A stretch of DNA of 64,000 bases from a virus, in IMG/VR virus record IMGVR_UViG_3300023240_000010. One strand, given 5' to 3'. The notes under the pieces are model-generated. The model ran no database searches. It was given only the letters and a program-made list of their open reading frames with translations, and was not told the DNA's origin. Below are positions 12,640 through 55,200 of the stretch, piece by piece. Both the position numbers and the translations under genes were made by a program. Within the stretch, counting starts at the first letter, position 1. Every line of letters starts with the position of its first letter.

Positions 12640-12647
12640 TATTTATA
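12640..12647 (-). promoter_or_regulatory. T4 late promoter for gp3
   Basis: TATAAATA. Confidence 0.8.
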
Positions 12648-35126: not shown

Positions 35127-38100
35127 TTAACCTTCTAGTGCTAGAATATATGGAGTTAGAATAGCGTATAGAGATCGTTCAAACGTCTCACCTACAATTC
35201 TACCTTCCTGTCTTTTGATTGTCAATTGAGAACCAATTCTAAAGTCGCCTAACTGATCCGTCGATGTAAATACTACTAAACCTTCGTTTGTTGCTGAGTC
35301 ATATACTACTTCTCTTTCTGGTCTTGGTATACCACCATTCTGAGGAATAGCAGTAAACGTGTTAGTTCCAGATCCAACATATTCAAAGGTGTGAGAAGAT
35401 GATGTAATAACAGATCGCTGTCTGAAAGTCATCTGCTGATTCGCTTTCTTGTTACTATTCAGTCCAGGTTCGAATGCAATGTCGTACATACCGCCACCGA
35501 CTGAATCAACACCCAACACTGTGTAGAAATATTCTTCACTGTCAAACTTCATTGCATCACCGTAGTTAGGCAACTTAGTTTGTCCTACAGTTCCGAAGTA
35601 ATCAGCACTATCTCTATTTATCACTCCTGAAATACGAATGGTGTCATCATACAGAAGTTTTGCTGAATCAAGATTGCCGTCATATAGTACTTGAGAACTA
35701 CCACGAGCAATCAGTCCGTAATCACCAAACGAAGAGTTACTGTTCGTAATAGAACATTGTCCACCAGTTTCAGCAAGAATAGAAGTCTGAGTTGAGATTG
35801 TAAAGATTGATACTAACTGTGCGTAACCACGATTCAACAAGTAAGTACCAATACCAGCGGCATTGTACTGAGTGAATGCGTCTGATACCATCGACTTCAA
35901 TCCAGAACATTTAGATCCGTCAATCTTCATACCGATACCATCGTTGGTAATAGATGTACAGTTCTGAACATATGGTGATTGAACGATGAATGGTCCAGCG
36001 CCAGCACTTTCTACTTTAGGATCATATGCTACACAGGCAGCGAAGTTCTGATGATCTCGGAAAGTAATATCTTTGATGAAACAACCGTTGTCCATATAGA
36101 ACATATCAGAGTCAACACTCTTAGGTCGCACAGTTGTTGTTCTCAAGTTATCACCAACGATTGCTGTCTTAGGCGGTAACTTGATAGGATTGTTTATTGT
36201 ATAATCACCAGACTTCAAGAAGATTGTAGTGTCACCAGTATTCTTAGCAGACTTTACGGACTGAAGAACAATGAAGTCCTGATCTTTCTTGACTGCGGCA
36301 ATCGCGTTTCGTAACTCTACACTTACACCACGACTTGATAGAATAGGATCAACTTCAGTCGGCAGACTGTCAGTATTACCAGCAACTAAAGTGGCAACTA
36401 AGAGGTCGTCAATCAGCGTAGCAATAATGGTTGATTCTGTTGAAGTTGCATACTGACCGGAGTTACCAGTCTCGTTAGGACCATATGCTGAAGTAGTAGT
36501 AACATTACTTGTAAGATTATTGGTGAGAAGTTGTCCAATAATGTCTCTCATATGCTCGTATGTTGCAATTGTTGCCGCAACTTCACCAGGGTTTAATTGA
36601 CTGGCAGCACCAACAAAGTATGCACGAGAGTTTATAACCATGGCGTGTGAACCGCCATATAATATATCGAAGGTTAGACCGTCAACAATAAACCCTATGT
36701 CTCTGCGACATCTAGTTCTATCGTAAGATGAAGGACCGTACAGATTAGCATACTGTATTGCTTGTGTTTGAATCGTGCTTTTCTGTGCTAGAATAGTAGA
36801 GTAGTTTGCCGCTGTTGTAGCATTAACACCAGTAAAGTTTGGTAGAATAGTAGCATCAAGATTGTCTAAACTTTCATCATTAATAACTTCAGTAATGATG
36901 TCCATGAGAACACCCAACTGAGTTGCTTGAGTAGATGTGGCAGTTCCTGCGCTAGTATCTTGACTTGCATAGTTTTCAATAACAACCAGACCTAATGAAG
37001 TCTTCAGATATGCATATGCACCCAGTGTTGCAACCTTCTCACTGGCGCCTAATTGACTTGCAGCACCAACAAAGTATGCTCTTGCACAAGTAACAGCACC
37101 AACATTTCCTTCGTAGACTATATCGTGAGTAAGACCGTCAAGAATATAACCAATATCTCTTTTACGCTTAACTCGATCATAAGTTGTTGGACCATACGAA
37201 TCAGCATACTCTATAACATCTGCTTGCAGGGAGGTGAGCGCACCATTGATGGTGTTGTAGTCTGTAGACACTATACCAGTAAAGTCTGGCAGTACACGAG
37301 TTGCGATCGAATCAAGATTTTCTGCTACAAGAACGTCAATAATAATATCAAGTAACGTGCCCGTTGTGGTTGCTTCTGTAGCAGTTGCAGTTCCGCCTGT
37401 TGTATTCTGACCAGTATATGTTTCTTGAACTATTGATGATAGAATAGTTTTAAGATTATTAAAAGAATCCTGCCGAGCGGCGACTTCTGCGCCACTGACA
37501 ATCACTGTTACTCCATCAACAAAGTATGACCTCGCAACATTGAATGAAGCGAAGTTGCCTGCATAAAGAAGATCGTGAATTATACTTTCAAGAATATAGA
37601 GAACTTCTGTTTGATATTTGCCACGATCATATATAGCAGGACCATACAAGTCAGCAAAGGCAAGTGAGTCTGATTGAATAGTTGTCTTTGCTGCCACAAC
37701 AGTAACAAAGTCAAGAATTATCGGTTCAGCAATAGCAGTCGTATCAGGATTAACTAGTGCAGGAACACCATCAAAGTTACCAGCAGTTAATGCGTCAATA
37801 GTTATCTGAAGAAGACCCTGAAGTCTTGTAGTCTGTAGTAATTGTCCAGACTGAATTTCGCCTGTTACGTCCTGTCCAGTCAAAGTTTCACTGAGCAATG
37901 TACCAAGTTGAGTTTTAAGATTAGTGTATGCCGCAATTGAGGCAGTAACTTCTGCCGCTCCACCTAACTGAGAAACACCATCCTTGAAGTAAGAGAATGC
38001 TAAAATACGTGAAGCGAAGTTGCCATCATACAGAATATCATAAGATAGTCCGTCAAGAATGTAACCTACGTCACGTTCGCATTTTTCAACATTGTAACTT

Positions 38101-40070
38101 AATGAAGGATAGTTTGTAGTGAGATAAGCAATCGTATTGTCAATAAGTAACTGACGGTTATTTCTAATCTGCTCGTGTGCCCAATATTCATTATTCAGAC
38201 TATTAAGAGGAGTAGGATATACAATCACCGGTGCTGGAATCTTTCCTTCAAGAATGTCAAGAATAATTTCAAGATTCTTTAACAATGAAATTTTAGACGA
38301 TTCGTTGATATCCAATGCACTAAGAAGAACACCGATGTTTCTGATAGTCAGTACAGTGCCTTCGACTTGTTCCTCAGGAATAGCACCTGCGCGAGTATAT
38401 GCAAGACCCGCTGTCACTGTATTATAGTTAGTACCAAACAACAAATCGTTGGTCAGTGCTTCGATAATGTAACCCACATCTCGCGAACATTTAGTTCTAG
38501 GATATGTTAATGAGACATGATTCACTGAAACATATGTGGTGCTGGCATCGATGATTAATTGTAAATTATTTAAAATCTGATCTGCGGCATTACGTCTGTT
38601 AGCAGTAGTATTAACAGAGTCTGGATACGCAATAGGAATCGGTTGAAAAGGAGGCACACCCGACATGATAGCGGTCAACTGAACAAACGATGCGTTAATG
38701 TGGGACTTACTTGCCGCACTAATACTTAGAGCATTTATTCCAACTCTTAATACTTCCCAGGCAGCAATTGTAAATGCTAACTGATTTCCTGGCAATGCAT
38801 TGGCACGTCGATACGCAAGACCTGCTGTAATAACATTATAGTCTGTTCCTAACATTAAATCAATAGTTAATGCATCGACAATGTGACCAACGTCTCGTTC
38901 ACACTTAGTTTGGTCGTAATCCTGAACGTCATAGTTGTCCGAGATATACTGAATAGTGTTGTTGATTAATAGGGTTTTGTTATTCTGTATCTGATTGCCA
39001 GCATCTGCCTCTGCTGTTATGGTAGCAGGTGCGGCAGGGAATATAATCGTTGCGGCAGCAGATTCGCCATTGACGATTATGTCAGTGATTTCTTTAACGC
39101 ATGAGGTGATTAAAACTTTCGAAGCGTCAGCAATACTTAGCGATAACATTTGATCACGAACAAAGACAATCACCGCAATTGTGGACGCTACTTGTGCTGT
39201 AGGCAATGCATTTGCTCGTTGATAAGCAATACCTGCGGTCACACAATTATAGTTCGAACCAGTCATTAAGTCTGTGATAACAGCATCAATGATGAAACCC
39301 GTATCACGTAGACATTTAGTTTCGTCGTATGTTAATGTAGGATAGTTTTTAGCAATGAATGTTATAAGTTCATCTTTCAACCATTCACGGTTGTTCTGAA
39401 GAATAATGGCAGCATCATCAGCATCAGCAGTAGGTAATACAGCAGGAGCAGGAAAGACTAGATCGTCGTGTGCTTGTTCTGTGCTTTGCTTACCATTTGT
39501 AAGAATATCTATCACTTCTGACCAGTGAGCATTGTTTCTATATAACGCTCCTGTTACACCAGTGCTTGCCTTTACTAGAGGAATAGAACCAACAGCACCA
39601 CGTGCTTGGTTAAATGCTACAACAGTTGGTTGCAATTGTCCTGTAGTAACTTTATTTGATCCTGCTCTTTGATAAGCATGACCAGATGTTACTGCATTAT
39701 AGTTTGTTCCGAAAGCAATGTCAAGGTAAAGTCCGTCAAGAATATAATTTAAGTCACGAGTACACTTAACTTCATCGAATGCGAATGAACCTAGTGCGGT
39801 AACGGTAGAAACAGCAGAGTCGAGAGTCTTAAAAGAGTCTCCTAGAGAAGTACCAGTATTGCCAAACTTTCCAGATTTAGAAACGTAGTAAACATTCTCT
39901 ACAGCATCTTCGCCTACTTGAATTATATCGACCACACCAAATCTATCACGCTTGAGGTACATTTTACCTTCATGCGTGTTGATCGCTATCTCGCCGAGCG
40001 ATATGTCTGTGTTGCCGGGCGCTTGACCCGGGACATTACTTCGGCGACTTAGTAACTTAGTGCTTGACAT
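35127..40070 (-). CDS. Large virion structural protein: beta-helix domain interrupted by 8 helical KCxRDxGY repeats
   Basis: GEIAINTHEGK N-terminus; YYVSKSG...FKTLDSA and TIFLKSGDY...IVGDNLR halves; QSPYVQNCT. Confidence 0.8.
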   Translation of the reverse strand: MSSTKLLSRRSNVPGQAPGNTDISLGEIAINTHEGKMYLKRDRFGVVDIIQVGEDAVENVYYVSKSGKFGNTGTSLGDSFKTLDSAVSTVTALGSFAFDEVKCTRDLNYILDGLYLDIAFGTNYNAVTSGHAYQRAGSNKVTTGQLQPTVVAFNQARGAVGSIPLVKASTGVTGALYRNNAHWSEVIDILTNGKQSTEQAHDDLVFPAPAVLPTADADDAAIILQNNREWLKDELITFIAKNYPTLTYDETKCLRDTGFIIDAVITDLMTGSNYNCVTAGIAYQRANALPTAQVASTIAVIVFVRDQMLSLSIADASKVLITSCVKEITDIIVNGESAAATIIFPAAPATITAEADAGNQIQNNKTLLINNTIQYISDNYDVQDYDQTKCERDVGHIVDALTIDLMLGTDYNVITAGLAYRRANALPGNQLAFTIAAWEVLRVGINALSISAASKSHINASFVQLTAIMSGVPPFQPIPIAYPDSVNTTANRRNAADQILNNLQLIIDASTTYVSVNHVSLTYPRTKCSRDVGYIIEALTNDLLFGTNYNTVTAGLAYTRAGAIPEEQVEGTVLTIRNIGVLLSALDINESSKISLLKNLEIILDILEGKIPAPVIVYPTPLNSLNNEYWAHEQIRNNRQLLIDNTIAYLTTNYPSLSYNVEKCERDVGYILDGLSYDILYDGNFASRILAFSYFKDGVSQLGGAAEVTASIAAYTNLKTQLGTLLSETLTGQDVTGEIQSGQLLQTTRLQGLLQITIDALTAGNFDGVPALVNPDTTAIAEPIILDFVTVVAAKTTIQSDSLAFADLYGPAIYDRGKYQTEVLYILESIIHDLLYAGNFASFNVARSYFVDGVTVIVSGAEVAARQDSFNNLKTILSSIVQETYTGQNTTGGTATATEATTTGTLLDIIIDVLVAENLDSIATRVLPDFTGIVSTDYNTINGALTSLQADVIEYADSYGPTTYDRVKRKRDIGYILDGLTHDIVYEGNVGAVTCARAYFVGAASQLGASEKVATLGAYAYLKTSLGLVVIENYASQDTSAGTATSTQATQLGVLMDIITEVINDESLDNLDATILPNFTGVNATTAANYSTILAQKSTIQTQAIQYANLYGPSSYDRTRCRRDIGFIVDGLTFDILYGGSHAMVINSRAYFVGAASQLNPGEVAATIATYEHMRDIIGQLLTNNLTSNVTTTSAYGPNETGNSGQYATSTESTIIATLIDDLLVATLVAGNTDSLPTEVDPILSSRGVSVELRNAIAAVKKDQDFIVLQSVKSAKNTGDTTIFLKSGDYTINNPIKLPPKTAIVGDNLRTTTVRPKSVDSDMFYMDNGCFIKDITFRDHQNFAACVAYDPKVESAGAGPFIVQSPYVQNCTSITNDGIGMKIDGSKCSGLKSMVSDAFTQYNAAGIGTYLLNRGYAQLVSIFTISTQTSILAETGGQCSITNSNSSFGDYGLIARGSSQVLYDGNLDSAKLLYDDTIRISGVINRDSADYFGTVGQTKLPNYGDAMKFDSEEYFYTVLGVDSVGGGMYDIAFEPGLNSNKKANQQMTFRQRSVITSSSHTFEYVGSGTNTFTAIPQNGGIPRPEREVVYDSATNEGLVVFTSTDQLGDFRIGSQLTIKRQEGRIVGETFERSLYAILTPYILALEG

Positions 40071-41218: not shown

Positions 41219-41578
41219 TTATGTTGTTACTGAAGGGGTAATAGTGATAAGTCCTTCCATCACCCGTTCGACGATAGTGTTATTTGTGTCACTATCAATA
41301 TGGGATATCTCAACGTCATAAACGTAACGCTTTTTAGGATTAAGTGCGGCAGTGACAGCATTAGTTAAAGAAAGATTTACTATCCCCGCTGTTGCTGGAT
41401 TAGCAATCAACGAAAGAAATGTAATCTTATCTGAATCTTTGGCATCATAATGAGTGCTAAGTTTAGCAGAAACACTATGTCCTGTCATGTCTTTTATTGA
41501 GTTATCGACATTAACCAGATGCAATTCGACAGAGACATCTGTGCCTTGATTAATTTCTAATACTTCGTAGTGTGCCAT
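41219..41578 (-). CDS. Small virion protein (BppU-like fold possible)
   Basis: INQGTD, GIVNLSLT..VT, RYVYDVEI, RVMEG.ITITPSVT. Confidence 0.65.
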   Translation of the reverse strand: MAHYEVLEINQGTDVSVELHLVNVDNSIKDMTGHSVSAKLSTHYDAKDSDKITFLSLIANPATAGIVNLSLTNAVTAALNPKKRYVYDVEISHIDSDTNNTIVERVMEGLITITPSVTT

Positions 41579-41605: not shown

Positions 41606-41625
41606 TATTTATAGGTTTATTTATA
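41606..41625 (-). promoter_or_regulatory. Two tandem T4 late promoters
   Basis: TATAAATA at 41606-41613 and 41618-41625. Confidence 0.8.
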
Positions 41626-41630
41626 AGAAT

Positions 41631-42305
41631 TTAAGCGTGTATATCTTCAATAACCCAATCTTGTAGACCTAAAGACATCTCTGATCGATCTAATACGAAA
41701 GCGATTGTCATACGTATTCCGCTTTCACCATTACGTGCTGTATGATATACTAGTTTATCAGATCCATCTTCGTATGCGCCGAAGTGTCCTGCCTTACACT
41801 GCCATCCTTTAACATCAGGAATGTGAATCATCTTCTGATTGACTGGATCCCAATGCTTCCACCAACCATCGCCTGTTTCACTGTATGTAAATATAAAGTT
41901 ATATGCTGAAGCATTAGCATTGTTATGCCAAGAGATATAACCGCCAGGTGGATACACCGAGAACAGAGCATTCTTTTTAAGATTGAATGCAGTCTGTACA
42001 TTAGTCATCAACCTACTATGATGATCAGCAACTTCTGCTATCTTTCTATCAATATGTGGGTTATGAGGATCAAACCTATAACCTTGATTGAATGAATAAC
42101 TAGTAACAAAAGCAGGGAACCCATCGTGTCCTCTGCCCTCACTCTTAATCTGCTCAAAGTATTCTTGACCAGTATACCAATCTGCTTTGTCTAAATCATT
42201 TATCTTAGAAGGAATAACCGCACTATAGTTCTCTTGCTTAGTAAACCACAATGCCTCATTCAAAAGATCGATTGCGTAATCATTAAGTGGTATATTTTTC
42301 ATCAT
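41631..42305 (-). CDS. Putative 2OG-Fe(II) oxygenase / double-stranded beta-helix enzyme
   Basis: YPPGGYISWHNN, distal YHTA, RMTIAF: spacing like prolyl-hydroxylase family. Confidence 0.6.
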   Translation of the reverse strand: MMKNIPLNDYAIDLLNEALWFTKQENYSAVIPSKINDLDKADWYTGQEYFEQIKSEGRGHDGFPAFVTSYSFNQGYRFDPHNPHIDRKIAEVADHHSRLMTNVQTAFNLKKNALFSVYPPGGYISWHNNANASAYNFIFTYSETGDGWWKHWDPVNQKMIHIPDVKGWQCKAGHFGAYEDGSDKLVYHTARNGESGIRMTIAFVLDRSEMSLGLQDWVIEDIHA

Positions 42306-42307
42306 AT

Positions 42308-43063
42308 TTAAAAATCCAGTTGCTTTGCTCCAGAAGAAGAATAGTGTCTCAATACGACAGGATCCTTGTTATGCTCATATTTATATTTGGAATAAAAGTT
42401 CCACCGAGCATCGTCTTCTAGTATACCAACTTTCAAATCTTTGTACTTGGGTTCTTTGTTAACTAACCACCACAATGAGAATTGATCCCATCTCTTCAGA
42501 GTAGCAGGATAATTTTCTAAGTCTTCTGTTCCATCTGCTTTCATTGGCCACCACGTTCTGCCATATTGTGCGACAGTTAGATCGTACCAGTCTTGCATGA
42601 ATTCACGAACTAAAGGTTTGCGCATATCATATAGACAAACACCACCACATAATTCGAATCCTGCTTTAGTGCCGTCAGGTTTTCTTGCACCTTCGAAGAA
42701 CACTTCAGCATAGCAGTAATGTCTATCAGCAGGTAAACCAGTAAACATCAAATCATGTCCATCTAGTTTATCAAAGATGGTTGCAATATCTTCGTGTTCA
42801 CATTCTATATCAGCATCGACATAAAATGTAATATCATATGGAGACTTTGCCATACCAATCAGTTTTGCTCTAGCATGGTTATCACAGAATATAACATTGT
42901 CTGCAATTCTTTCTTGTCCGTCAAGAAATCTTTCTTCTACTACAAATGTAATCTGTGCTTCGGGATAATAATCTTTAATCGACTCCATCAAGTTAATGGC
43001 AGAAACATAAAAGAACTTCTTTCGTGATGCTACAATAACATAACCTTTAGTCGGTTCGCTCAT
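42308..43063 (-). CDS. Putative GT-A glycosyltransferase
   Basis: GYVIVAS, AKL...SPYD.TFYVDAD (DxD), GGVCLY, WDQFSL, RWN, LRH; start placed at MSEP. Confidence 0.75.
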   Translation of the reverse strand: MSEPTKGYVIVASRKKFFYVSAINLMESIKDYYPEAQITFVVEERFLDGQERIADNVIFCDNHARAKLIGMAKSPYDITFYVDADIECEHEDIATIFDKLDGHDLMFTGLPADRHYCYAEVFFEGARKPDGTKAGFELCGGVCLYDMRKPLVREFMQDWYDLTVAQYGRTWWPMKADGTEDLENYPATLKRWDQFSLWWLVNKEPKYKDLKVGILEDDARWNFYSKYKYEHNKDPVVLRHYSSSGAKQLDF

Positions 43064-43520
43064 CTTCATCTGCCTTTTTAAAATAACCAAGTTCGGTGCC
43101 AATAACCAATGCTGCCAAGGCATTCATTTCAATAACATTCTTTGCTCTACGTAGTCTGGAACGCAACTCACGATTTGTTGAGTTCTTAATCGTATCTATT
43201 TCGAATGCTTGTAGTTTGGCATTAAAGAGTTGTTCAAGTTCATGAGATTTTTTACGCTGTTCGTGAATAGCACGTTTCTCGCGATCCTCTTTCTCTTTCT
43301 TATCTTTGCGCTCTTGAGTATTAGCGTCGATCTTATCCATACCCCATTGTGCAATAACTGCTTTGAACTGATCACACTCTCTACCGTCAGGTAAAATCTT
43401 ACGTAGTTCAAGAACATCTTTCTTTCTACCGCCTGATGGAATAGGACTTAGACGAATACATTTAAGTATCGTCTTTTCTTCATTTTCCCAATATCCATTA
43501 TCTAAAAATTCCACTGTCAT
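43047..43520 (-). CDS. Hypothetical protein, possible fibre-assembly chaperone
   Basis: NGYWENEEKTILKC resembles Tfa-type N-termini; helical C-terminus; coupled (TAATG) to the giant gene. Confidence 0.55.
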   Translation of the reverse strand: MTVEFLDNGYWENEEKTILKCIRLSPIPSGGRKKDVLELRKILPDGRECDQFKAVIAQWGMDKIDANTQERKDKKEKEDREKRAIHEQRKKSHELEQLFNAKLQAFEIDTIKNSTNRELRSRLRRAKNVIEMNALAALVIGTELGYFKKADEDERTD

Positions 43521-46500
43521 TATGCTACCCTTACATATAATGTGTATGTTTCAATCTGTACTGGATTAGCAAGCAACTTGCCACCAACACCATATAAAAT
43601 AGATGTTTGATAATCTATTGTGTAATCTTGCGTGTATGTTCCGATGTAGTTAGTGTCTTCATAATTCTCTAATACTTCTACATCTTGATAATCTGAAGTA
43701 TAGTCCGTAGAATAATCAACATCATCATAACTTGAAACATAAGTTTCAGAAACATCTGCGCCTTCAAATGTATCTATATAGTTGCCTAAGTACACATCCT
43801 CTTGATAGTCTACTGAGTAGTCTGTATCATAAGTCTGTTCAATATAGTCAACAGTGTAAGACTCGTCAACTGCATTAGCATCATAAGTGCCTGTGTAGTT
43901 TCCAGCATATAGTGTTGAGTACGAAGGAGTATAGTCGCCAAGATAATCACCAACATAAGTTAGTGTGTAGTTTGACTCATAGTCTCCTGCGTAAGTAGTG
44001 CCGTAATCACCAGCATAAGTTGAATCGAAACCGCCTTCGTAGACTCCATCAAATCCTTGCAAGAAATCACCAGCATAAACTGATTCGTAAGTTCCTTCGT
44101 AGATCGTGTTGTAATCACCTAAGTAATTGCCTTCGAAGTCAACAAGATAATCAGTTGTGTAATCTGAAATATAGTTGCCTTCGTATTCGATATCGTCATA
44201 GGTCGAAACATAGTTGCCGAGATAGTTTTGCTCTTCATAAACACCGCTATAGTCTGTGACGTAATCACCACTATAGTCTCCAACATAATCACTAACATAG
44301 TTTCCTACATATACTTGATCGTCGTATGCAGTTTCATAAGTTGAAGTGTATTGACCAATGAAGTCGCCGATATAAAGACTAACATAGTTGCCTGCGTAAT
44401 CAATGTCATCATAGTTAGAAGTGTATTCACTTGCATATGTTGTAAGATATTCTGTCTCGTAGAACCCAGAATAAGTTGCTGTGTAAGGACTCTGATAATC
44501 ACCGGTGTAATCTGTGTTGTAGAAACCTGTGTAATCTGTTTCGAAGTCACTAACATAGTTTCCTGCGTAATCAATATCATCATACTCACCAGTATACTGC
44601 GCGACGAATGTTGATTCGTACTGATTAAGATAGTTTGAATCATATGTTCCTGCGTAGATCGCACCATCATAATCAGTGGTGTATACAGTAGCATAATCAG
44701 ATATATAATCACCATCATATGCAGTACCATAAGTGCCTGCATAGTTCTCTTGGAAGTCTCCCTCGTATCCAGAATCGTAATCAGAGATATAATCGTCCGA
44801 GTACTGTGAGATATAATCGCCAGCATATATGTCAGAAATATACACATCGGTAAAGTTGCCCGCATAATTCTCGGTGAAGTTACCATCATATGTTGAAATG
44901 TAAGCAGAGACATAGTTGCCGTCATACTGTGACGCATATGATCCTTCGTACTGAGTAAGGTATTGTCCTTCGTAAGTCTCAACATATCCAGAGATATAAT
45001 CGCCCAAATAGTCAACTAAGAATGCGCCTTCATAATCTGTGATATAACCTGTGCCATAAGTGCCGGTGAAGTTACCATCATATGTTCCAATAAATGATTC
45101 TTGGAAAGCACCTTCGTAAACAGAGATATAGTCGCCATCATATGTGTCAACATAATCAGAAGCATAGGTTCCTTCGAAGTTAGCAGAGAAGTCGCTTTCG
45201 TATGCTGAACCGTAATCTCCTAGGAAAGTTCCAAGATACTCTGAGTCATACGTACCTTCATATTGCTCTTGAAAGGCACCATCATAAGATGACAAGTATT
45301 GTGAAACATAAGTGTCGATGTAATCTACGTTATAAGTTCCAGTAAATGTAGCAGTAAACTCACTCTCATATTGACTTGAATACTCGCCTGTGTAATCATC
45401 AGTATACGATCCTTCGAAGTCACCTTGATATTGAGTGATGAAGTTTGATTGGTATTGAGAAACGTAATCAGATGTGTAAGTTTCAATGTAGTCTGAGACG
45501 TAGTTGCCTTCATATGTTGCACCAAATGCGCCTTCATATTCAGATAGATACTCGCCTACGAATGTTCCAATATATTGTGCGCTAAACTGAGCGCCAAAGT
45601 TGGCAGCAAAGTTACCTTCATATGATGCTACATAGTTTCCTAGGAATGTGCCGAGATACTGTGCGCTAAAGTCGCCGGTGTATACTACAGCAAAACTGCC
45701 TTCATACTGAGAAACATAGTTTCCTTCGAATGTTCCGAGATAATCAGTTGCGTAAGTTCCCGCGAAAGATTGAGCGAACGATCCTTCGTACTGAGACGCA
45801 TAGTCTCCGTCGAATGTTCCGAGATAGTTAACACCAAACTGACCAGTGAAGTTTTGTGAGAATCCGCCTTCGTACTGTGACGCATAGTCTCCGTCGAATG
45901 TTCCTATATACTGCGATACATATTGGGTTGCGAAGTTTGCCGCAAAAGATCCGGTGTACTGTGTAGCATAATTTGCGTTGAAGGTTCCTAAATAGTTTGC
46001 AGTAAACTGTTGATCTTGCACACGCTCATACGCACCGAGATATTGAGAAAGGTAATCGCCTTCGAATGTTCCAATATATTGTGCGTTAAATGTCTCGTTC
46101 TGCGCACGTTCATATAGTCCTACGTAGGCAGAGTCGAAACTACCTTCGAATGTTGGAATATAGTTAGCAGAGAAGTTCTCGTTCTGCGCACGTTCATATA
46201 GTCCTGCGTATTGACCAGTATAACCACCAGTATATGTTCCATCATAGTTTGCAGTGAATTGCTCGTCCTGCGCACGTTCATATAGTCCAGTGTATTGACC
46301 AGTATAGTTACCTATGAATGTTCCTAGATAATCAGATGCATAGTTCGCAGCATCGTCTCGATCATATACACCAAGATATTGTCCCAGGTATTGACCAATA
46401 TAGTCGCCTAAATAGTCAGAAGTTCTTGTCTGATTCTGCGCACGTTGATAACCACCAGCATATTGCCCAACATAATCACCTTCGAATGTTCCCGTATAGT

Positions 46501-49500
46501 TTGCGGTGAACTGCTCTTGTACATCACCTTGATATGCACCAGTGTATACGCCAAGATATTGTCCTGTGTAAGTACCTTCAAAGACTGCTGTACGAGTTTC
46601 ATTCTGCGCACGTTCATATAGTCCTACATAACCGCCAGTATATTGTCCAGTAAAGTTACCTTCATAAGTTGCACTTCGTGTGGTATTCTCTGCACGTTCA
46701 TAACCACCAGTATATCCACCGGTGTATGATTGTTGAATACCCTCTTGAGTGGTCTGTGATATAACTTCCTGAGCAGTTCGTTCATAACCGCCAGTATATC
46801 CACCAGTGTAAACACCAGTATATTGACCAGAGTATTGTCCTGTGTATGTTCCACCTCCGACAGCATAATTTGTCGTAGTCGGAGAGTTGGCAATTACACC
46901 GACTTGCCAACCACTATTTGCAGGAAACGCTGATGGAGGTTGTCCGAATGGGGACCAAGTCAAAGTACTCACTGGGCCATTAGCGCCAGTCCATGTAAAT
47001 GCAGTTCCATAATAATTGTTGGCATAAGTGGCAGAGGCGCGGAGGAATGTATAACCGTTCCTATCAGCAGTTGTACCATATGCCGGCGCACCGCTCACCG
47101 GCGCGCCGGAACCTGAACCGTACCACCAAATTATTATACCATACCAACTATTTCTCTGAGTAGTGCTAAGTGCTGATGTAAATGTCAGTGTTACGTATGG
47201 CCCCGGTGCCACCCCAAATGACTCATTCTTAGTTAACGCATGAACGGTAGCATTTATAGGAGACCAATAGGTATCTGCCATACTATTGCCGGCGGACTGG
47301 TTACCGCCAGAATAACCCGAAGGAGTTGGGTTAAAACCTATAGAATATTGGGTAAGGTAAAGGTTTGTATAATAACCTGTCACCATTGTTGTCGAGTCGG
47401 TGTAATTGTTGCCCGTATAGTTGACAGTGCTAGTGAATGACTCATTAGTTGACTGTGTTATTGCTTCAGAAATACCAGTCTGTTGTGTCTCTTGTACTTG
47501 ACCAGTATATCCACCTTGATATCCACCAGTGTATCCACCAGTGTAAGTACCGGTGTAAGTAGACTGTATAGTCTCTTGTACTTGACCAATATATTGTCCT
47601 GTGTAAGCGGCGACATAATTTGCAGCAAAGGTTTCGTTAATAGCAGTTTGTTGTGTCTCCGAGATTTGACCAATATATTGTCCTACAAAGTTGCCTGTGT
47701 AGTTCTCCTGAATTACCTCGTTAACACCATCAGTAATGTTCTCAGACTGTATGCGAGTATAACCACCAGTAAATTGTGTAGCATAGTCTGCTCTATCGTA
47801 TGATCCTTGGAAAGTTTCATTAATGCTTTCGCCCACAACACCAGTATATTGTCCTGTGTATGCTGCCTGATAACTTCCTCGCTCGAAAGATCCTGTAAAC
47901 AATTCATTGATACTTTCTCCTACACCACCAACATAATTGCCTGTAAATTGTGTGTTGTAGTTTTGTCTATCGTAGTTTTCAGCATTAACTGTGTCTAGGT
48001 TTTCAGAAATCTGTCCTGTGTATTGTCCCGTAAACTGTGTCGCATATTGTCCGCGGTCAAAAGATTCTTGGTTAGTAGTGTTCTCACTCTCGCCAATCTG
48101 TCCTACATATTGTCCTGTGAAGGTCGAAGTATAGATTCCGCCATCATAATTACCAGTATATGATACATTCTCAGTTTGTCCTACCTGACCAACATATTGT
48201 CCAGTATATTGAGATGCATAGTCTAGTCTATCATACGATCCTAAGAATGTTGCGCTGAAAGACTCTGGTACACCACCAGTATAACCACCGGTAAATTGTG
48301 TAGCGTAGTCTATTCTATCATACGATGCTAGATAATTAGCAGTAAATGCGCCTTCATAATCACCTGTATAAATTTGCTCATACTCTCGCGTATATGATGC
48401 GCGGTCATACGTACCCAAGAAGGTTGCAGTGAAAGCACCACTATAATCGCCTGTGTATATGCCTTCGTACTGTGTGAGATAATTAGCACGATCATAAGCA
48501 CCCTGAAATGATGCTGTAAAGTTACCTAAATAATCGCCCGAGTAAACAGTTTCAAATTCGTTTGTATAGTTTGTACTATCATATGTTCCTAAGAATGTTG
48601 CATTGAAAGCACCACTATAGTTACCGGTGTAGTCAACAGTAAAGTTCGAAATATAACCTGAACTATCATAGTCGCCTAAGTAGTCTGTATTGTATAGACC
48701 AATATAGTTTCCGGTATAAGTTGCAGCAAATTGAGTCTCGTATGCTTGACTATCATATTCACCCGAGAAGGTTGCGCTGAATGATCCTGTGTATGAACTT
48801 GCGTATGATGATATATAATCACCCGCATATGTTCCAGCATCATAATTCGCTGTGAAGGATGCACTAAAATCAGAAACATAATCTGTAGCATACTGCGCTG
48901 TGAATATAGAAGTGTATGCAGAACCCGCAAAAGAGGCAGCGAATTGACCAGTGAACTGACCAACATAGTTACCTAAATAGTCCGACTCGAATGCACCAAC
49001 GTAAGGAATACCGTCGAAACTGGCAGCAAAGTTCTGACTGAATGTTCCGATGTAATCACCGATATAAGATGAATCATATACTGATAGGTACGTAGTGCTA
49101 TCGTACTCGCCAATAAAGGATGCTGTGAATAATCCTGAGTACTCGCCAGTATAAGTTGTTTCGAACTCAGCGATATATGCTTGAGCATCATAAACACTTA
49201 CATAAGCAGAATCGTAATTGCCAAGATAATCGCCAACATAAGTTTCTTCGTATGTTGATATGTAATCTGTGCCTTGATAATCTGTAGCATATTCTGTATT
49301 GTATAGACCAATATAGTTGCCAACATATTGACTAGCATAGTTGCCTTGATACTCGACTCCATCAAATACACCAGTGTATAGTGTTTCAAATTGTCCACCA
49401 TATTCACTCTCATAAGTTGAAACATAATCAGAAACATATTCAGTGCCATCATAAGGCGAGATATAATCACCAAGATAATCTGATATGTAATCACCAGTAT

Positions 49501-51964
49501 AGATGCCAGTATATTCTACAGTATAGTCTGTTGAGTACTGCGCTTCATAATTACCAGAGTAGGTAGAAATATATTCTCCACCATAATCGCCTACATATAC
49601 TGTTTCGAACTCATCAGTGTATTGTGAAAGATAGTTTCCTGCATATACATTCTCATATCCAGCATCAAAGGTTGCTGTATAATCTGTCTCGAATCCGCCA
49701 ACATATACAGCATCAAACTGAGTAGTATAATTTGTTTCGTACTCTCCAGCATATGTTCCGAGATAATCGCTGATGTAATCACCAGCGTATAAATTTGTGT
49801 AAACACCTTCAAAGGCAGTTTCATAATCAGCAACAAAGTTGCCCTCATATGCCACTTCATCATACTCGCCTTCATATTGTGTAATATAGTCAGTTGTATA
49901 ATCCGACTCATATCCACTTGCATATGTTCCTAGATAATCACTGATGTAATCACCAAGATAGTTCTCTGCGAACTGACCTTCGTATTGTGAGTCGTAATCT
50001 GTTAGATATGTTCCAAGATAATCAGCAGTGAAGTCTCCAGCGTAAGTTGCTTGAAAGTCTCCTTCGTAGGAGTTATCATATACACCCTCATAACTTGCGC
50101 CGTAATCGCCTAGATAATCACCGTCATAAGTTCCAAGATAGTTACTGATGTAATCGCTGGTATAATCAGTAATGTAGTTTCCTGTGTATACATCATCGAT
50201 ATAGTTCGAGATATAGTTGCCAAGATATTCAGTCTGGAATCCACCAAGATAATCTGAAACATAGTTGCCTACATACTCTGTGCCAGAATAATCTGAAAGA
50301 TATGTGTTTGTGTAATCACTGATATAGTCTGTGTTGTAATCACTGATATAGTTACCAGTGTAATCAACAGATTCGTAGTCACTAGCATACTGTTCAATAA
50401 CAGCATCAGCATCATATGTGTTTTCATAATCACTAATGTAATCGGTGCCATCATAAGTAGGCACGTATTGATTAACGTAATCACCGAGATAGTTTTGTGT
50501 GTATTCTGTATTGTAATCGCCGAGGTAGTTCTGTGTGTAGTCACCCAGATAATCGCCATCGTATGTTGGAGTATATGAACCAGTATAATCACCGTCATAT
50601 GTTCCTAAGTATTCACCAGCAAATTCACCACTATATGTTGGTTCATAGTTGCCAGTATAAGTTGCTTCATAGTCGCCGAGATAGTCTTCTGTATACTGAG
50701 CAGTGTAAGTTTCTAGTGCTTGATAACCTGTATCATAATAGTATTCAAGTCTAGTATCAATTGCACTACCACGTGCTACCCATGTACCAGTATCTGTCGG
50801 TCGACCTTGAGTCGCTGAACGTAATTGATATTTACCAATACCAGTAGTTTCGACCGCTTTCTTTACTCGCTCACCAAACGTGAACTCTACTTCTGCATCG
50901 CTATGTTGTCTTAGTCCTGCCCATCCATTCTGAGCATTACGTGCAATATAAAGAGGTCTAATTACAGCAGGTTTAATGCCTGCTTGTCTGATCCATATAG
51001 AATAAGGTATAACAGTTCCATCGCCACGTGTGTCATTAAATACACTAGGAATAAACTGTACCCAATCAGCGCCAGGACTGTTCGCACTTAGACGATACGT
51101 ACCAGGCAACTCGTCTCGCATGATACGTATGACCAACTCTTCGCAAAATGCGTCAAGTTCTGCGTCATTCATCTCCTTAACACCGTTGGGCGTTAATGCT
51201 CTGCTCCAATATAATGGATTTTTCTTTAATGCACTAGTAGTATTAATAGGTTGTGATGCTGTTGTTACTTGATAAAGATCAGTCTGAACACCTATAGACT
51301 CCGGTGGTAAGGTCTCTTCGATTTCAATAGTAGGGAATACAATACTAGTGTTAGCAGTTTGTTTAGTTGTGTTTTGAACGTCAGTAGAGTTGGCAGTTAA
51401 AGTGAAGTTTAAAAGACCTACTTGAGTTGCTTTGATTTCGAATGTTGATTGATATGATCCTGAAAGACCACCGACAGTACTGAAGTCTTCCCACTCAACT
51501 CTTGTTCCATCAACTGAGTTAGCAGTAGGGGTTGTAGTAACGCCTTCGTTATCAAATAGTGCATCACCAGATACTGAAAGTTCGTGTCCGATCTCTTCAA
51601 ATCCAGTTACTGCGTCACCATTTACAACAACATAAACTGTATCGCCGACATATAGAGGAGACGGCATCTCACCCTGTGCGGTGAATATTGCGGTGTGTAT
51701 ACCAGTGCCAGGATTTGATCTATGTTCAACAGTGAAATTGACTGTGTAAAATGTGCCTGGTGTATCACCGACAGAGGTTTCGAAGAAGGTGTCGGTGAAA
51801 GTGCCGACAGCAGTTGCTCCACTACTCGTAGTAGTCAGAGCAGAAACATCGACATTGGTCATTTTTCCAAGATGTACTCCCGCCTGATACGCCAGATAAT
51901 CTATATCGAGCGTAGCGAGTTCTTGAAGTGCACCAGTTGCTAGGTGTTTTAACGGTAAGGACAT
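43520..51964 (-). CDS. Giant 2814-aa Tyr-rich tetrapeptide-repeat protein, probably virion-associated
   Basis: Uninterrupted 8.4-kb ORF; (Y/F)xxx periodicity over ~2200 aa; late promoter upstream. Confidence 0.85.
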   Translation of the reverse strand: MSLPLKHLATGALQELATLDIDYLAYQAGVHLGKMTNVDVSALTTTSSGATAVGTFTDTFFETSVGDTPGTFYTVNFTVEHRSNPGTGIHTAIFTAQGEMPSPLYVGDTVYVVVNGDAVTGFEEIGHELSVSGDALFDNEGVTTTPTANSVDGTRVEWEDFSTVGGLSGSYQSTFEIKATQVGLLNFTLTANSTDVQNTTKQTANTSIVFPTIEIEETLPPESIGVQTDLYQVTTASQPINTTSALKKNPLYWSRALTPNGVKEMNDAELDAFCEELVIRIMRDELPGTYRLSANSPGADWVQFIPSVFNDTRGDGTVIPYSIWIRQAGIKPAVIRPLYIARNAQNGWAGLRQHSDAEVEFTFGERVKKAVETTGIGKYQLRSATQGRPTDTGTWVARGSAIDTRLEYYYDTGYQALETYTAQYTEDYLGDYEATYTGNYEPTYSGEFAGEYLGTYDGDYTGSYTPTYDGDYLGDYTQNYLGDYNTEYTQNYLGDYVNQYVPTYDGTDYISDYENTYDADAVIEQYASDYESVDYTGNYISDYNTDYISDYTNTYLSDYSGTEYVGNYVSDYLGGFQTEYLGNYISNYIDDVYTGNYITDYTSDYISNYLGTYDGDYLGDYGASYEGVYDNSYEGDFQATYAGDFTADYLGTYLTDYDSQYEGQFAENYLGDYISDYLGTYASGYESDYTTDYITQYEGEYDEVAYEGNFVADYETAFEGVYTNLYAGDYISDYLGTYAGEYETNYTTQFDAVYVGGFETDYTATFDAGYENVYAGNYLSQYTDEFETVYVGDYGGEYISTYSGNYEAQYSTDYTVEYTGIYTGDYISDYLGDYISPYDGTEYVSDYVSTYESEYGGQFETLYTGVFDGVEYQGNYASQYVGNYIGLYNTEYATDYQGTDYISTYEETYVGDYLGNYDSAYVSVYDAQAYIAEFETTYTGEYSGLFTASFIGEYDSTTYLSVYDSSYIGDYIGTFSQNFAASFDGIPYVGAFESDYLGNYVGQFTGQFAASFAGSAYTSIFTAQYATDYVSDFSASFTANYDAGTYAGDYISSYASSYTGSFSATFSGEYDSQAYETQFAATYTGNYIGLYNTDYLGDYDSSGYISNFTVDYTGNYSGAFNATFLGTYDSTNYTNEFETVYSGDYLGNFTASFQGAYDRANYLTQYEGIYTGDYSGAFTATFLGTYDRASYTREYEQIYTGDYEGAFTANYLASYDRIDYATQFTGGYTGGVPESFSATFLGSYDRLDYASQYTGQYVGQVGQTENVSYTGNYDGGIYTSTFTGQYVGQIGESENTTNQESFDRGQYATQFTGQYTGQISENLDTVNAENYDRQNYNTQFTGNYVGGVGESINELFTGSFERGSYQAAYTGQYTGVVGESINETFQGSYDRADYATQFTGGYTRIQSENITDGVNEVIQENYTGNFVGQYIGQISETQQTAINETFAANYVAAYTGQYIGQVQETIQSTYTGTYTGGYTGGYQGGYTGQVQETQQTGISEAITQSTNESFTSTVNYTGNNYTDSTTMVTGYYTNLYLTQYSIGFNPTPSGYSGGNQSAGNSMADTYWSPINATVHALTKNESFGVAPGPYVTLTFTSALSTTQRNSWYGIIIWWYGSGSGAPVSGAPAYGTTADRNGYTFLRASATYANNYYGTAFTWTGANGPVSTLTWSPFGQPPSAFPANSGWQVGVIANSPTTTNYAVGGGTYTGQYSGQYTGVYTGGYTGGYERTAQEVISQTTQEGIQQSYTGGYTGGYERAENTTRSATYEGNFTGQYTGGYVGLYERAQNETRTAVFEGTYTGQYLGVYTGAYQGDVQEQFTANYTGTFEGDYVGQYAGGYQRAQNQTRTSDYLGDYIGQYLGQYLGVYDRDDAANYASDYLGTFIGNYTGQYTGLYERAQDEQFTANYDGTYTGGYTGQYAGLYERAQNENFSANYIPTFEGSFDSAYVGLYERAQNETFNAQYIGTFEGDYLSQYLGAYERVQDQQFTANYLGTFNANYATQYTGSFAANFATQYVSQYIGTFDGDYASQYEGGFSQNFTGQFGVNYLGTFDGDYASQYEGSFAQSFAGTYATDYLGTFEGNYVSQYEGSFAVVYTGDFSAQYLGTFLGNYVASYEGNFAANFGAQFSAQYIGTFVGEYLSEYEGAFGATYEGNYVSDYIETYTSDYVSQYQSNFITQYQGDFEGSYTDDYTGEYSSQYESEFTATFTGTYNVDYIDTYVSQYLSSYDGAFQEQYEGTYDSEYLGTFLGDYGSAYESDFSANFEGTYASDYVDTYDGDYISVYEGAFQESFIGTYDGNFTGTYGTGYITDYEGAFLVDYLGDYISGYVETYEGQYLTQYEGSYASQYDGNYVSAYISTYDGNFTENYAGNFTDVYISDIYAGDYISQYSDDYISDYDSGYEGDFQENYAGTYGTAYDGDYISDYATVYTTDYDGAIYAGTYDSNYLNQYESTFVAQYTGEYDDIDYAGNYVSDFETDYTGFYNTDYTGDYQSPYTATYSGFYETEYLTTYASEYTSNYDDIDYAGNYVSLYIGDFIGQYTSTYETAYDDQVYVGNYVSDYVGDYSGDYVTDYSGVYEEQNYLGNYVSTYDDIEYEGNYISDYTTDYLVDFEGNYLGDYNTIYEGTYESVYAGDFLQGFDGVYEGGFDSTYAGDYGTTYAGDYESNYTLTYVGDYLGDYTPSYSTLYAGNYTGTYDANAVDESYTVDYIEQTYDTDYSVDYQEDVYLGNYIDTFEGADVSETYVSSYDDVDYSTDYTSDYQDVEVLENYEDTNYIGTYTQDYTIDYQTSILYGVGGKLLANPVQIETYTLYVRVA
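45783..46624 (-). repeat. 84-bp periodic coding repeats within the giant gene
   Basis: TGCGCACGTTCATATAGTCC at 46101, 46185, 46269, 46605; near-identical ~38-mers at 45783 and 45867. Confidence 0.85.
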
Positions 51965-51995
51965 AAATCAGTCATCTTAGGTCAGTTGTTTCATT

Positions 51996-52003
51996 TATTT
52001 ATA
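51996..52003 (-). promoter_or_regulatory. T4 late promoter for the giant-protein unit
   Basis: TATAAATA overlapping the stop of the upstream gene. Confidence 0.8.
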
Positions 52004-52229
52004 TGCTTCTGGAAAGCAATAATGCGAGAGCGTCCTTTATTTCACACATATCTTTCTGAAGCGTTTCTACTGTTTTCACTAAGTCTGTCTGATCTTTTTG
52101 TTGTTGTCCTCTTATTTTTTTCTGTCTCTGGGCAAGTTCGATCTCGTGAGCATTTACGTTTATTAACGCATTAGACTCCATATCTCGAACTAACCCAGGA
52201 ACACCCTCTACTTTGACGTAGCGCGACAT
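51999..52229 (-). CDS. Small hypothetical protein with C-terminal coiled coil
   Basis: VKVEGVPGLVRD..SNALIN; coupled to the upstream gene. Confidence 0.75.
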   Translation of the reverse strand: MSRYVKVEGVPGLVRDMESNALINVNAHEIELAQRQKKIRGQQQKDQTDLVKTVETLQKDMCEIKDALALLLSRSI

Positions 52230-55200
52230 TAACTTGCTAACCACTTAACTACTACACTACCTATGGTTGCAGGTGTTGCAGGATTAGTACCCGTGGTAAT
52301 TATCTTAGTCTGTGCTTGTGTGAATGGATTCAGTGTACCTGCAACACCGCCTGCAAGAAACTTAACTCTGCGACTTTGACCATCTTTAACAATAATGTTA
52401 AATTCTGGTTGAAGTATCCAGGACAGTTCACTAAGATTCTGATCTGAAGTACCTACACGATAGTAGACAAGTACACTACCTGTTGGTGGTATTGATAAGT
52501 CAGCACTAATTTCAATACCGATAGCAGGTGATTCAAGAACGACTGGTTTCATAATATGTGCAGAACTTGAACTCGCTCCCGACGATGCTGTATTAGCAAC
52601 ATTGTAGATGTGAGGAGTAACCGATGGATCATCAATCAAGTTATTTACAGTGACCAAAGATGATCGTTGTAAGTCAATGATTGGTGAGACATAATCGTTA
52701 GCACTCTTCATGTCAACTTTAAAGAAAGTAGAAGAAGTGAATGTTGCAACACCTTCGCCAGTCCTATCAGAATCAACTTCAAACTGATTGTACAGAGTGT
52801 ATGTAGCAGCAAGATCAGTGTTAGTCTTAGGAGTAATTCTAGTGAAGTTAGCATCCTGTGCGAATCGTGTCTCCGTACCAGAGATAGATCGTCCAGTAGT
52901 AAACTTACCGGACACATCAATCGAAGTAGAGTTAGGAATAATCGACTCGATAATTGGATTAACTACTGAGAAGTTTATGTTGCCTTGTGACAATACTCTT
53001 TCGCCACCACCAGTTGCAGTCGATGTTGCAGTAACAGGATTAGAAGGACTAATTTCAAATCTGTAACCGTACATATCAACATCGATAACTTGATGTGATC
53101 CACTCAACTGCTCGGCAGTGAATCCGCCTGTTGCAGTAGCACTATCAATGTTAGCACCGTCACCTGCACGTAGACCATGATTGACATGTCGAACGTAAAT
53201 GTTGGCAGAACTGTTTACAGTTTGAATTGGATTCTCTTCAAGCAGTTTAGAAGGCACAACGGCATTCTTCAGTATCAAACTACCGTTAGCACCACCGCCA
53301 GAACCGAACACTGCACGAGTAACTTTAAACATTAAGTCTTCGTTCAAAGACTTCTCCCAGTTCTTACCGTTCTGTGGCAAGAAGAGATAACCCGGAGTCT
53401 GTGTGCTGTTGAATCTACCAGTCGTGTTGATAACTGACTCGCTAGTTCTTGCACTAAACAACTCATATTCAGTTGACTGTGAAGTAACTACAATAGCATA
53501 GTCTTGTCCTGGTGCCAAGTAAACAGGTTCATCGAATACGAATGACGTTCCGTTACCTTGAATAGTAACTAACTGACTAGAGAGTTCCGAAACAATAACA
53601 TTTGCGCGGTTGACAAATACTTGTGAATCTGGTACCATAGTACTGTAAGAAGGTTTACCATTCTCGACAGGTCGAATATGTATAGAAACGGGCAGAGATA
53701 CATTAGCAGGTTTCGACTTAAAGAACAACTCGACTTTAGTTAGTGTAACACCAAACTCGTTGTTGACTTTAAATGTCTGTGCTAAAGGATTCATCGGAGT
53801 AGAGATTGCTTTTGTACCGAGAACAGAAGCAAACTGTGCCTGATTCACATTGATATAGTCGGACAGAACCTTAGACATATCTTGATTATTAGCAAGTGTC
53901 TGTAATGCTGCCGCGTTTAATGTAGCGCCGTCAGGACTATATAATCCAGATAATCTAGGATCAATAATACTTACTGAACTAGCAGGTATAGAATCAAGAA
54001 CCTTCTTCATCTCTTTTGCAGAATACAATCTATGTCTATAGTTGTAAGGATACAGATAACTATGACCACGTGTAAATGATAGAGGGTTGTACCAAGTCCA
54101 AGGCAACAGTCCTTTAACAGTGTAGTGTGCGAATGCTTTACTATTAGCGCCTGCCCAATCATTTACATTAATATCGAGAAGTTTAAACTCTCGCGCGCCT
54201 GATCTGAATCGTAGATAATACTTACTATATCGTCCACGATACTTAGTAGTAGCAACTTCATACTTTGGAGTGAGGTTAGGTATGAAGAATGATCCAATAA
54301 CTTCACCGTTAGCATCAGCAATAAGTTCGCTTGTGCCGTCAGGATGACCAAGAACTGCTGAGTGTGTTAACTTGTTACCAATTTCATCTGCTCTATCAGA
54401 CCACTGAAGGAATGAAGACTCTGATTTACACCATACCGAAACATCAGTACCGTCAAAGAACGGAGTGAACTTAGTGTTAGGAGTCAGACCTTGTGCTTTA
54501 AAGTAAATCTTTCGTGAGCGAATCCATGGTACAAATGCAACATCGATAGTCTTTTCACCGACAACATTACGTAAAGTCTCGCCAGCAATGATACGTCTAA
54601 CTATTCCAGAATCGTTTATTCCATATTTCGTTTTCAGAGTTCTAAGAGCGAACGCTTTTGATCTGCCTGAACCAGTACGAAGAGTCTGAGATAACTTAGC
54701 AATCTCTGTATTCTCTTTCGCAGTACGACCCTGCCAGTTCCACTGCCAGTTGTTCCATAAGAATGCTTGCTTACCGAATAGTCTTCCTGCACCAGCAAGA
54801 GACTTAGCGGCATTTTGAATAGACTCTTTCCACTCATCAGTTGACGGTGATAATTTCAAAGTGCCTACGTTGTCAACAAGACCGAACGGATTGATTTTAA
54901 CTGTTCTTGATGCAAGACTTTGATCGACCCAGTTCGCTTCAGTGTGAGCAAGATAGACATTATCGCCTTTCTTGACAACACCCGACGATGCCGTAGCATC
55001 AAAGATTAGACGCATATTACCTTCATCGAATGAAGGACGTACTAAACGATTTTCAGGATCAATTGCTGCCTTATAGTCAGGAGATTCTACTTCAGCATTA
55101 GTCTGATCGGCATGTTCATCTACTTGCATACCACTAATGATACGTAGTACACCCGCACTATCAAGAACATTGTCCATTCTTGCTTCAAGTTCTGCAATGC

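Follow-up and report, generated by a model that had tools for sequence, protein, structure and literature searches.

The 64,000-nucleotide (nt) stretch of viral DNA analysed here (IMG/VR record IMGVR_UViG_3300023240_000010, referred to as the window) contains a gene for a giant, tyrosine-rich protein followed at once by three small genes, two of which encode predicted enzymes, namely a glycosyltransferase and a protein resembling 2-oxoglutarate (2OG) oxygenases. This arrangement raises the question of whether the four genes form a unit and, if so, what the enzymes act upon. The answer we favour, with somewhat better than even confidence, is that they constitute a conserved, late-transcribed fibre-maturation module of marine T4-like myoviruses, in which the three partners probably mature or decorate the fibre encoded by the giant gene. 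The module comprises the following open reading frames (ORFs), all four of them real (lengths in amino acids, aa):

43520..51964, minus strand: giant fibre-family gene, 2814 aa
43047..43520, minus strand: gene for the 157-aa partner protein, found in every module examined
42308..43063, minus strand: gene for a GT-A glycosyltransferase of GT8-like (retaining) fold, 251 aa, assigned from a structural model and invariant motifs
41631..42305, minus strand: gene for a double-stranded beta-helix protein of the prolyl-hydroxylase (PHD/P4H) type, 224 aa, assigned from a structural model

The genes overlap or abut, as stated in the first-pass annotation of this DNA: the pentanucleotide TAATG is common to the stop of the giant gene and the start of the 157-aa gene, the latter overlaps the transferase gene by 17 nt, and 2 nt separate the transferase stop from the start of the oxygenase-like gene. 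The 17-nt overlap is counted from position 43063; the longest ORF of the transferase would begin at 43123 (271 aa), but its homologues use the start at 43063, and the protein is therefore taken to be 251 aa long.

Related loci were retrieved from IMG/VR in three independent ways, i.e. by the transferase, by the oxygenase-like protein and by the motifs of the fibre family, and the order that recurs is fibre-family gene, small protein, transferase, oxygenase-like gene. In the retrieval by the transferase the order of the last three genes (hereafter the trio) was complete in 81 cases out of 81 (80 loci and Phage C48C1, the only isolate found with the module, whose gene order is identical), with the fibre gene in first place where the flank reaches that far. 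The oxygenase-like protein retrieved 77 further loci, and the trio was present in all of those with enough upstream flank. Starting from the fibre motifs, all three partners were found in each of the 48 loci whose sequence continues for 2300 nt or more beyond the last family gene. A type of oxygenase-like protein with only 24% identity (P0381) is located in the same four-gene module, and a distant oxygenase-like query (P0345) found no viral locus in IMG/VR. Fibre-family genes often come two in tandem before the trio (L056, L057, L140, L153, L157, L251-L257 and others), and in six loci (L137, L139, L141, L142, L147, L148) a second one is inserted between the transferase and the oxygenase-like gene. 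Co-occurrence of the enzymes with the repeat protein in other genomes, on which the first-pass annotation had staked its proposal, is thus without exception, and the module is almost certainly a single functional unit built around the fibre gene.

The second line of evidence concerns transcription. Copies of the T4-type late-promoter motif TATAAATA are found at the following positions in and around the module:

51996..52003, minus strand: one copy, 32 nt upstream of the ATG of the giant gene
42378..42385, minus strand: an extra copy inside the transferase gene, where it encodes Tyr-Lys-Tyr, about 73 nt before the last gene
41606-41613 and 41618-41625, minus strand: two tandem copies, 6-18 nt past the stop of the last gene

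The whole window contains 13 copies, all on the coding (minus) strand, against 5.4 expected. Several of them directly precede structural genes (e.g. those at 12640, 16879/16895, 21258, 30523, 59057 and 61562). The tandem copies at 41606-41625 mark the start of the next late unit, and this downstream boundary is conserved, since 84 of 108 distinct modules have a copy after their last gene. On the upstream side, a perfect motif lies at most 150 nt before 22 of the 48 distinct fibre-family genes of other loci. No copy lies within the small gene, or between it and the fibre gene, in any of the 108 distinct modules. The first-pass annotation had reported the late promoter before the unit and the tandem ones after it, both of which stand, and had missed the fourth copy inside the transferase gene; this one might act as a weak late promoter within the unit, from which the last gene is transcribed, and its conservation is limited to close relatives (12 of the 108 modules). 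Counted over the 108, a motif lies within 200 nt before the last gene in 12 modules and within the transferase gene in 4. In the 11.5-kb region around the module, sigma-70-like sites are not in excess (46 found, 40 expected) and no terminator was detected at any gene boundary, the sole terminator-like match being inside the giant gene. Together with the complete linkage, the conserved downstream boundary supports the view of the four genes as one conserved late module.

The giant protein belongs to an undescribed family with a conserved base, a conserved tail and an expandable region of aromatic-x-Gly-x tetrapeptides between them. Neither Pfam nor PHROG models cover it, or any of the five short family members scanned with it, above threshold, and a search of the ESM Atlas with the base domain returned no usable match. 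The protein of the window can be divided as follows:

50735..51964, minus strand: N-terminal non-repeat base domain, aa 1-410, conserved across the family, with a PLK...YLAYQAG start
47504..50734, minus strand: repeat arm 1, aa 411-1487 (1077 aa), with a 29-residue super-period and 239 aromatic residues
46724..47503, minus strand: central non-repeat domain rich in Trp, Pro and Gly, aa 1488-1747 (260 aa), presumed distal tip
43607..46723, minus strand: repeat arm 2, aa 1748-2786 (1039 aa), with a 28-residue super-period and 243 aromatic residues
43520..43606, minus strand: conserved C-terminal tail ending in ..IETYTLYVR-x-A and the stop codon, which overlaps the next ATG

Its described richness in Tyr, Thr, Ser and Asp is confirmed by the counts (417, 345, 213 and 218 residues, respectively, with 132 Phe in addition), and the protein is very acidic (isoelectric point, pI, 4.05). 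Successive aromatic residues are spaced exactly four positions apart in 432 cases, and the repeat unit can be written as [Y/F]-[T/E/L/A/I/V]-[G/S/T/A]-[D/T/N/Q], the conserved features being the aromatic residue, a Thr/Ser-rich position, Gly, and Asp/Asn. Lys is absent from the 2116 residues of the two arms, and Pro occurs there only 9 times; the Pro residues of the protein are concentrated in the base domain (19), which ends with a QG-x-PT..GTW motif whose Pro is invariant, and in the central domain (13). The latter is nearly uncharged, holds 13 of the 42 Pro and 7 of the 13 Trp residues of the protein, and is missing from short family members; it looks like an added distal tip. Family lengths range from 437 to more than 3300 residues, which indicates that the repeat part is freely expandable, while the N-terminal domain and the ..IETYTLYVR-x-A tail are common to the relatives.

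Two equal arms around a centre would fit a long antiparallel two-stranded ribbon that runs out and back. We checked this hairpin idea through the arm counts and the mirrored composition. The number of super-repeats is 37.1 in each arm (1077/29 and 1039/28), and the composition gradients of the arms correlate when one of them is mirrored (0.265) but not in direct comparison (-0.10). The value for the mirrored orientation was equalled in about 2 of 10,000 permutations; this represents agreement with an out-and-back ribbon and not proof of it, because smooth gradients inflate such a test. An equal-arm test across homologues was partly informative, as the largest-gap rule misplaces the centre in proteins with many segments.

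Variation of the repeats among relatives bears directly on the question of the substrate. At the aromatic position the share of Tyr ranges from 10% to 90% in family members that all keep the trio. Tyr as an obligatory sugar acceptor was considered and rejected on this account: it is unlikely to be required because Phe replaces it at up to 90% of the positions in relatives that retain the transferase. The trio also accompanies short family members, about 440 aa long, in which the repeat runs for only 6-31 steps, so the base domain, the tail (with its Thr-Tyr-Thr-Leu-Tyr sequence) or fibre assembly in general are at least as likely targets as the repeats. The first-pass annotation had proposed that the enzymes hydroxylate and then glycosylate the hundreds of hydroxyl residues of the giant protein, by analogy with the Lys residues of collagen and the Pro residue of Skp1. 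The range at the aromatic position, with the trio kept throughout, gives no support to the former idea, and the composition of the arms gives none to the analogy; modification of the repeats by Lys or Pro hydroxylation was rejected on the same composition.

The transferase was identified from its structural model. The AlphaFold model (predicted local distance difference test, pLDDT, 93.8) has glycogenin as its best match (Z-score, Z, 17.2; root-mean-square deviation, rmsd, 3.6 over 193 residues; 18% identity), followed by the Skp1 alpha-galactosyltransferase (6mw5, Z 15.4), LgtC (Z 15.0), GlyE (Z 14.9), UGGT (Z 14.8) and A64R of chlorovirus PBCV-1 (2p73, Z 14.6). On the evidence of the model, the protein is predicted to be a retaining GT-A enzyme of GT8-like fold, closest to GT8 members. 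In the numbering of the 251-aa protein, Asp83-Ala-Asp85, which comes after strand 78-83 in the model, shows no variation among 43 sequences, nor do Asp193-Gln194 and His240; the earlier description of a GT-A enzyme with a DxD motif is thereby borne out. The combination of Asp-x-Asp, Asp-Gln and a C-terminal His may correspond to the catalytic pattern of GT8 enzymes, in which case Asp-Gln would be the catalytic pair and the His the third Mn ligand. The profile of the family matched no PDB sequence, and Pfam GT8 (PF01501) was matched neither by the transferase nor by its family (43 members); 24 of the 43 gave weak matches to Glycos_transf_2 around the Asp-x-Asp (best E-value 6.5e-4), short of the cut-off. 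One metagenomic homologue (P0218, 427 aa) is fused to a Methyltransf_23 domain (PF13489), a fusion that hints that the transferred sugar or its acceptor may also be methylated in some phages.

The oxygenase-like protein was modelled with similar confidence (pLDDT 95.6), and its fold matches PHD2 (Z 11.4, rmsd 2.9 over 146 residues), Dictyostelium PhyA (6t8m, Z 10.4), Trichoplax PHD (Z 10.1-10.2), PiuC (Z 9.7-10.1), Pseudomonas P4H (Z 9.6-10.6) and the PBCV-1 prolyl hydroxylase (5c5t, Z 9.7). All 50 top matches of an unbiased structure search were 2OG oxygenases, with protein prolyl hydroxylases in the lead and TET and AlkB-type enzymes lower in the list (Z 8-9). A search of BFVD found one close, uncharacterised phage relative (TM-score 0.80). 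The family is large, with 508 clusters at 50% identity (E-value below 0.001), and in about 140 aligned, divergent cluster representatives hardly any change is seen at Tyr118, Trp126, His127, Asn129, His188 and Arg198, and several polar residues of the pocket are invariant as well. The distal His188 is kept in 136 of 137 members, and Arg198, which stands 10 residues after it as expected of the basic residue that binds the C5 carboxylate of 2OG, in 137 of 137. The iron-site motif of the window protein reads His-Asn-Asn (Trp126-His127-x-Asn129) and not His-x-Asp, so that of the earlier description as a 2OG-Fe(II)-like enzyme the fold, as modelled, stands and the canonical metal-binding motif does not. 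By its residues, the family is a distinct His-x-Asn branch with the predicted 2OG-binding residues intact. The window protein has no Pfam match at E-values up to 1; faint matches, all below the cut-offs, were obtained for only 3 of 53 divergent members, and the family profile found no relative among PDB sequences (two matches at chance level). An alignment of the profile with a canonical PF13640 oxygenase from a related phage covered 14 columns at the distal His/Arg, where it set W-H-x-A...R against the corresponding motif of that protein, and was non-significant.

In the 157-aa protein, roughly the first 60 aa form a domain that carries an N-[AG]-[FY]-W-E motif; a basic coiled-coil region (pI 9.2) with a conserved LFN.KL.AFE..E.K....R.L...LRRAK stretch follows. 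It had been annotated as resembling tail-fibre-assembly (Tfa) proteins, and this assignment had to be dropped, as it matched no PHROG and no Tfa family and gave only sub-threshold noise in Pfam. The Tfa-like protein is encoded by the adjoining gene, outside the unit:

41219..41578, minus strand: tail-fibre-assembly-like gene, 119 aa (phrog_1084, E-value 3.7e-18; phrog_3304, E-value 2.7e-12)

This gene opens the next unit, which leads to a 1647-aa tail fibre gene at 35127-40070. A role of the 157-aa protein as chaperone or adaptor is suggested by its start codon, coupled to the stop of the fibre gene, and by its charge, opposite to that of the fibre.

We propose the following scheme. One late transcript would carry all four genes; the 157-aa protein would assist the assembly of the very acidic fibre as its partner or adaptor; the transferase would add a hexose to the fibre, most likely at Thr/Ser in position 2 of the repeat or at a conserved site in the base or the tail; and the hydroxylase-like protein would oxidise, or merely bind, a conserved fibre residue, with Asp/Asn in position 4 of the repeat and the invariant Pro of the base domain as candidates. 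The two enzymes need not act successively on one residue. A stronger version, according to which abundant marine T4-like phages possess, for fibres of a novel type (ribbons of two strands in which every fourth residue is aromatic), a dedicated tailoring system that combines oxidation at a 2-His-1-Asn site with glycogenin-like glycosylation, appears to us possible but doubtful; the oxidation would in that case be new for this fold and could concern, for example, Asp/Asn or aromatic side chains. If this version is true, the T4 superfamily would have its first example of a tail appendage decorated by enzymes.

Several observations weigh against the maturation scheme, or at least against its enzymatic part. 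Where an Asp/Glu iron ligand would be expected, each of the 146 family members scored at this column has Asn, and the loss of the carboxylate ligand makes the oxygenase activity uncertain. In the unbiased search Z falls only from 10.4 for the first fold match to 7.5 for the fiftieth, a shallow ranking that renders the prolyl-hydroxylase label tentative. Neither enzyme reaches a Pfam cut-off, gives a PHROG match above threshold or has a sequence match to a solved structure. The oxygenase-like family is not specific to fibres, because its paralogues are found among genes of DNA metabolism: one in Phage C48C1 (L002:7974-8627) sits between a tail-tube-like gene and UvsY, and others (e.g. L194:7809-8483) adjoin UvsX, a DnaB-like replicative helicase, thymidylate synthase and a methyltransferase. 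The identity of a substrate cannot be read from gene order alone, and membership of the giant protein in the virion is a prediction. Moreover, GT8 genes in the host-recognition cluster of pelagimyophages have been read as modifiers of the host lipopolysaccharide (PMC7029224).

One alternative accepts the fibre as the client of the trio and takes the prolyl-hydroxylase-like protein, its acidic iron ligand lost, as non-oxidising, i.e. as a binding, scaffolding or folding factor or a 2OG sensor, beside which the transferase might work by itself or, like UGGT, as a lectin-like chaperone. The invariance of the His-x-Asn motif is in keeping with this, as are the failure to reach any oxygenase model in Pfam, the presence of UGGT, a folding-sensor transferase, among the fold matches, and the persistence of the trio beside short fibres with few repeats. 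However, both His residues, the putative 2OG-binding Arg, the Tyr before the first His and several polar residues of the pocket are all invariant, which is typical of a working active site, and there are precedents for unusual ligands: methylphosphonate synthase uses an amide (2-His-1-Gln), and two His residues alone suffice in the D201G variant of FIH and in halogenases. On balance we regard this alternative as unlikely.

Rather unlikely, too, is that the enzymes act on the host, with the GT8-like transferase, perhaps together with the oxygenase-like protein, remodelling the lipopolysaccharide or another envelope glycan late in infection. Such remodelling could block superinfection or keep the progeny from sticking to debris, and the genes would owe their place in the fibre region solely to the accumulation of host-recognition cargo there. 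The host-recognition cluster of pelagimyophages and cyanomyophages occupies the same region, between baseplate and neck genes, and combines tail fibres with GT8-type transferases (PMC7029224); in pelagimyophages GT8 is its commonest transferase family, for which modification of the O-chain was proposed (PMC7029224). LgtC, a lipooligosaccharide enzyme, is moreover among the close fold matches of our transferase. The transferases of that cluster, however, are treated as variable cargo, whereas the window contains a fixed four-gene module tied to one fibre family, which is not described there (PMC7029224). Cluster cargo varies from phage to phage, but the trio stands beside the same gene family in every locus we examined, its start is coupled to the fibre gene, most of its versions lack a separate promoter motif, and late timing fits virion assembly better than the exclusion of other phages.

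A modification of DNA or of a nucleotide sugar in the base J-like hydroxylate-then-glycosylate fashion, unrelated to the fibre, can be dismissed as very improbable: a clade of oxygenase-like paralogues does adjoin thymidylate synthase, methyltransferase, UvsX and replicative helicase genes in related phages, and TET and AlkB-type enzymes do appear in the fold list, but the copy in the module forms a distinct clade fixed in a tail module behind a late promoter, there is no gene of DNA metabolism near the module, and the transferase has a GT8-like fold, unlike the known DNA glucosyltransferases of T4.

The fibre-maturation reading can be compared with several known systems; we found no description of the module itself in the literature searched (on C48C1, the HxN facial triad, Tyr-rich or tetrapeptide phage fibres, and glycosylated phage virions). 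Chemical tailoring of a virus's own structural proteins is known mainly from giant viruses of eukaryotes and a few actinophages. If our reading is true, a fixed module of a fibre plus its enzymes in widespread marine myoviruses would bring such self-tailoring into the T4 superfamily and into the recognition of hosts in the ocean. Among proven viral systems, the closest analogue is the set of collagen hydroxylase and glucosyltransferases of mimivirus (the lysyl hydroxylase/glucosyltransferase L230 and the glucosyltransferase R699; PMC9546862, PMC5802723), where the virus likewise encodes a protein with the 2OG-oxygenase fold and a GT-A transferase beside highly repetitive, fibre-forming proteins (PMC9546862, PMC5802723). 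The mimivirus enzymes, and LH3/GLT25D1 of animals, hydroxylate Lys in Gly-X-Y repeats, whereas the arms described here lack Lys and have a four-residue aromatic period; in addition, the oxygenase-like protein of the window has His-x-Asn, none of the functions is fused in one polypeptide, and the activity is predicted.

With the Skp1 pathway of Dictyostelium and Toxoplasma the module shares fold matches to both PhyA and the GT8-type alpha-galactosyltransferase, as well as, by prediction, cytoplasmic action on a single protein substrate. Nevertheless, these matches are near-ties with many other members of the respective families, the pathway targets one Pro, a residue nearly absent from the repeats and offered here only by the base and central domains, and its GT8 enzyme extends an existing glycan without attaching a sugar directly to the protein. 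Glycogenin, itself a GT8 enzyme, glucosylates its own Tyr, and here the transferase closest to it in fold neighbours a giant Tyr-rich protein; unlike glycogenin, however, this transferase has no sequence match to Pfam GT8 or to PDB sequences. Chlorovirus PBCV-1 uses enzymes of its own (the prolyl 4-hydroxylase and A64R) on its own structural or repeat proteins, which is only predicted for the phage of the window. PBCV-1 is a eukaryotic virus; Pro-rich repeats are the target of its hydroxylase, in which the normal His-x-Asp is present, and no operon unites its two genes with that of the substrate, in contrast to the linkage of the enzymes with the fibre gene seen here. A 2OG oxygenase has been detected in a virion preparation of a cyanomyovirus (PMC12801897).

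Two of the families are of interest beyond the module. The His-x-Asn oxygenase-like family, which comprises about 500 clusters at 50% identity and for which Pfam has no model, offers a clean test case for a 2-His-1-amide site, and the fibre family, an expandable aromatic tetrapeptide ribbon of about 440 to more than 3300 residues, adds a type of protein for which Pfam and PHROGs have no match.

With respect to the genomic setting, the window is one long minus-strand gene block of a T4-like myovirus. Its major capsid protein is 69% identical to that of Phage C48C1 (Kyanoviridae) and about 60-62% identical to those of Methylophilales phage Melnitz and Pelagibacter phage HTVC008M. PHROG matches around the module identify gp5, gp25 and gp6-like baseplate genes and two more genes of the baseplate-wedge type, together with the Tfa-like gene and the 1647-aa tail fibre mentioned above. 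Two further genes precede the module:

51999-52244, minus strand: small ORF of 81 aa from a GTG (about 76 aa from an ATG), of charged helical look, between the 1798-aa gene and the giant gene
52229-57625, minus strand: gene for a 1798-aa protein, upstream of the module (phrog_358, E-value 7e-298)

The stop codon of the small ORF falls inside the TATAAATA motif at 51996-52003. The 1798-aa protein belongs to a large family without assigned function (phrog_358); the position of its gene, between the baseplate-wedge genes and the fibre module, is conserved, and the C-terminal motif of the protein recurs upstream of the module in distant loci.

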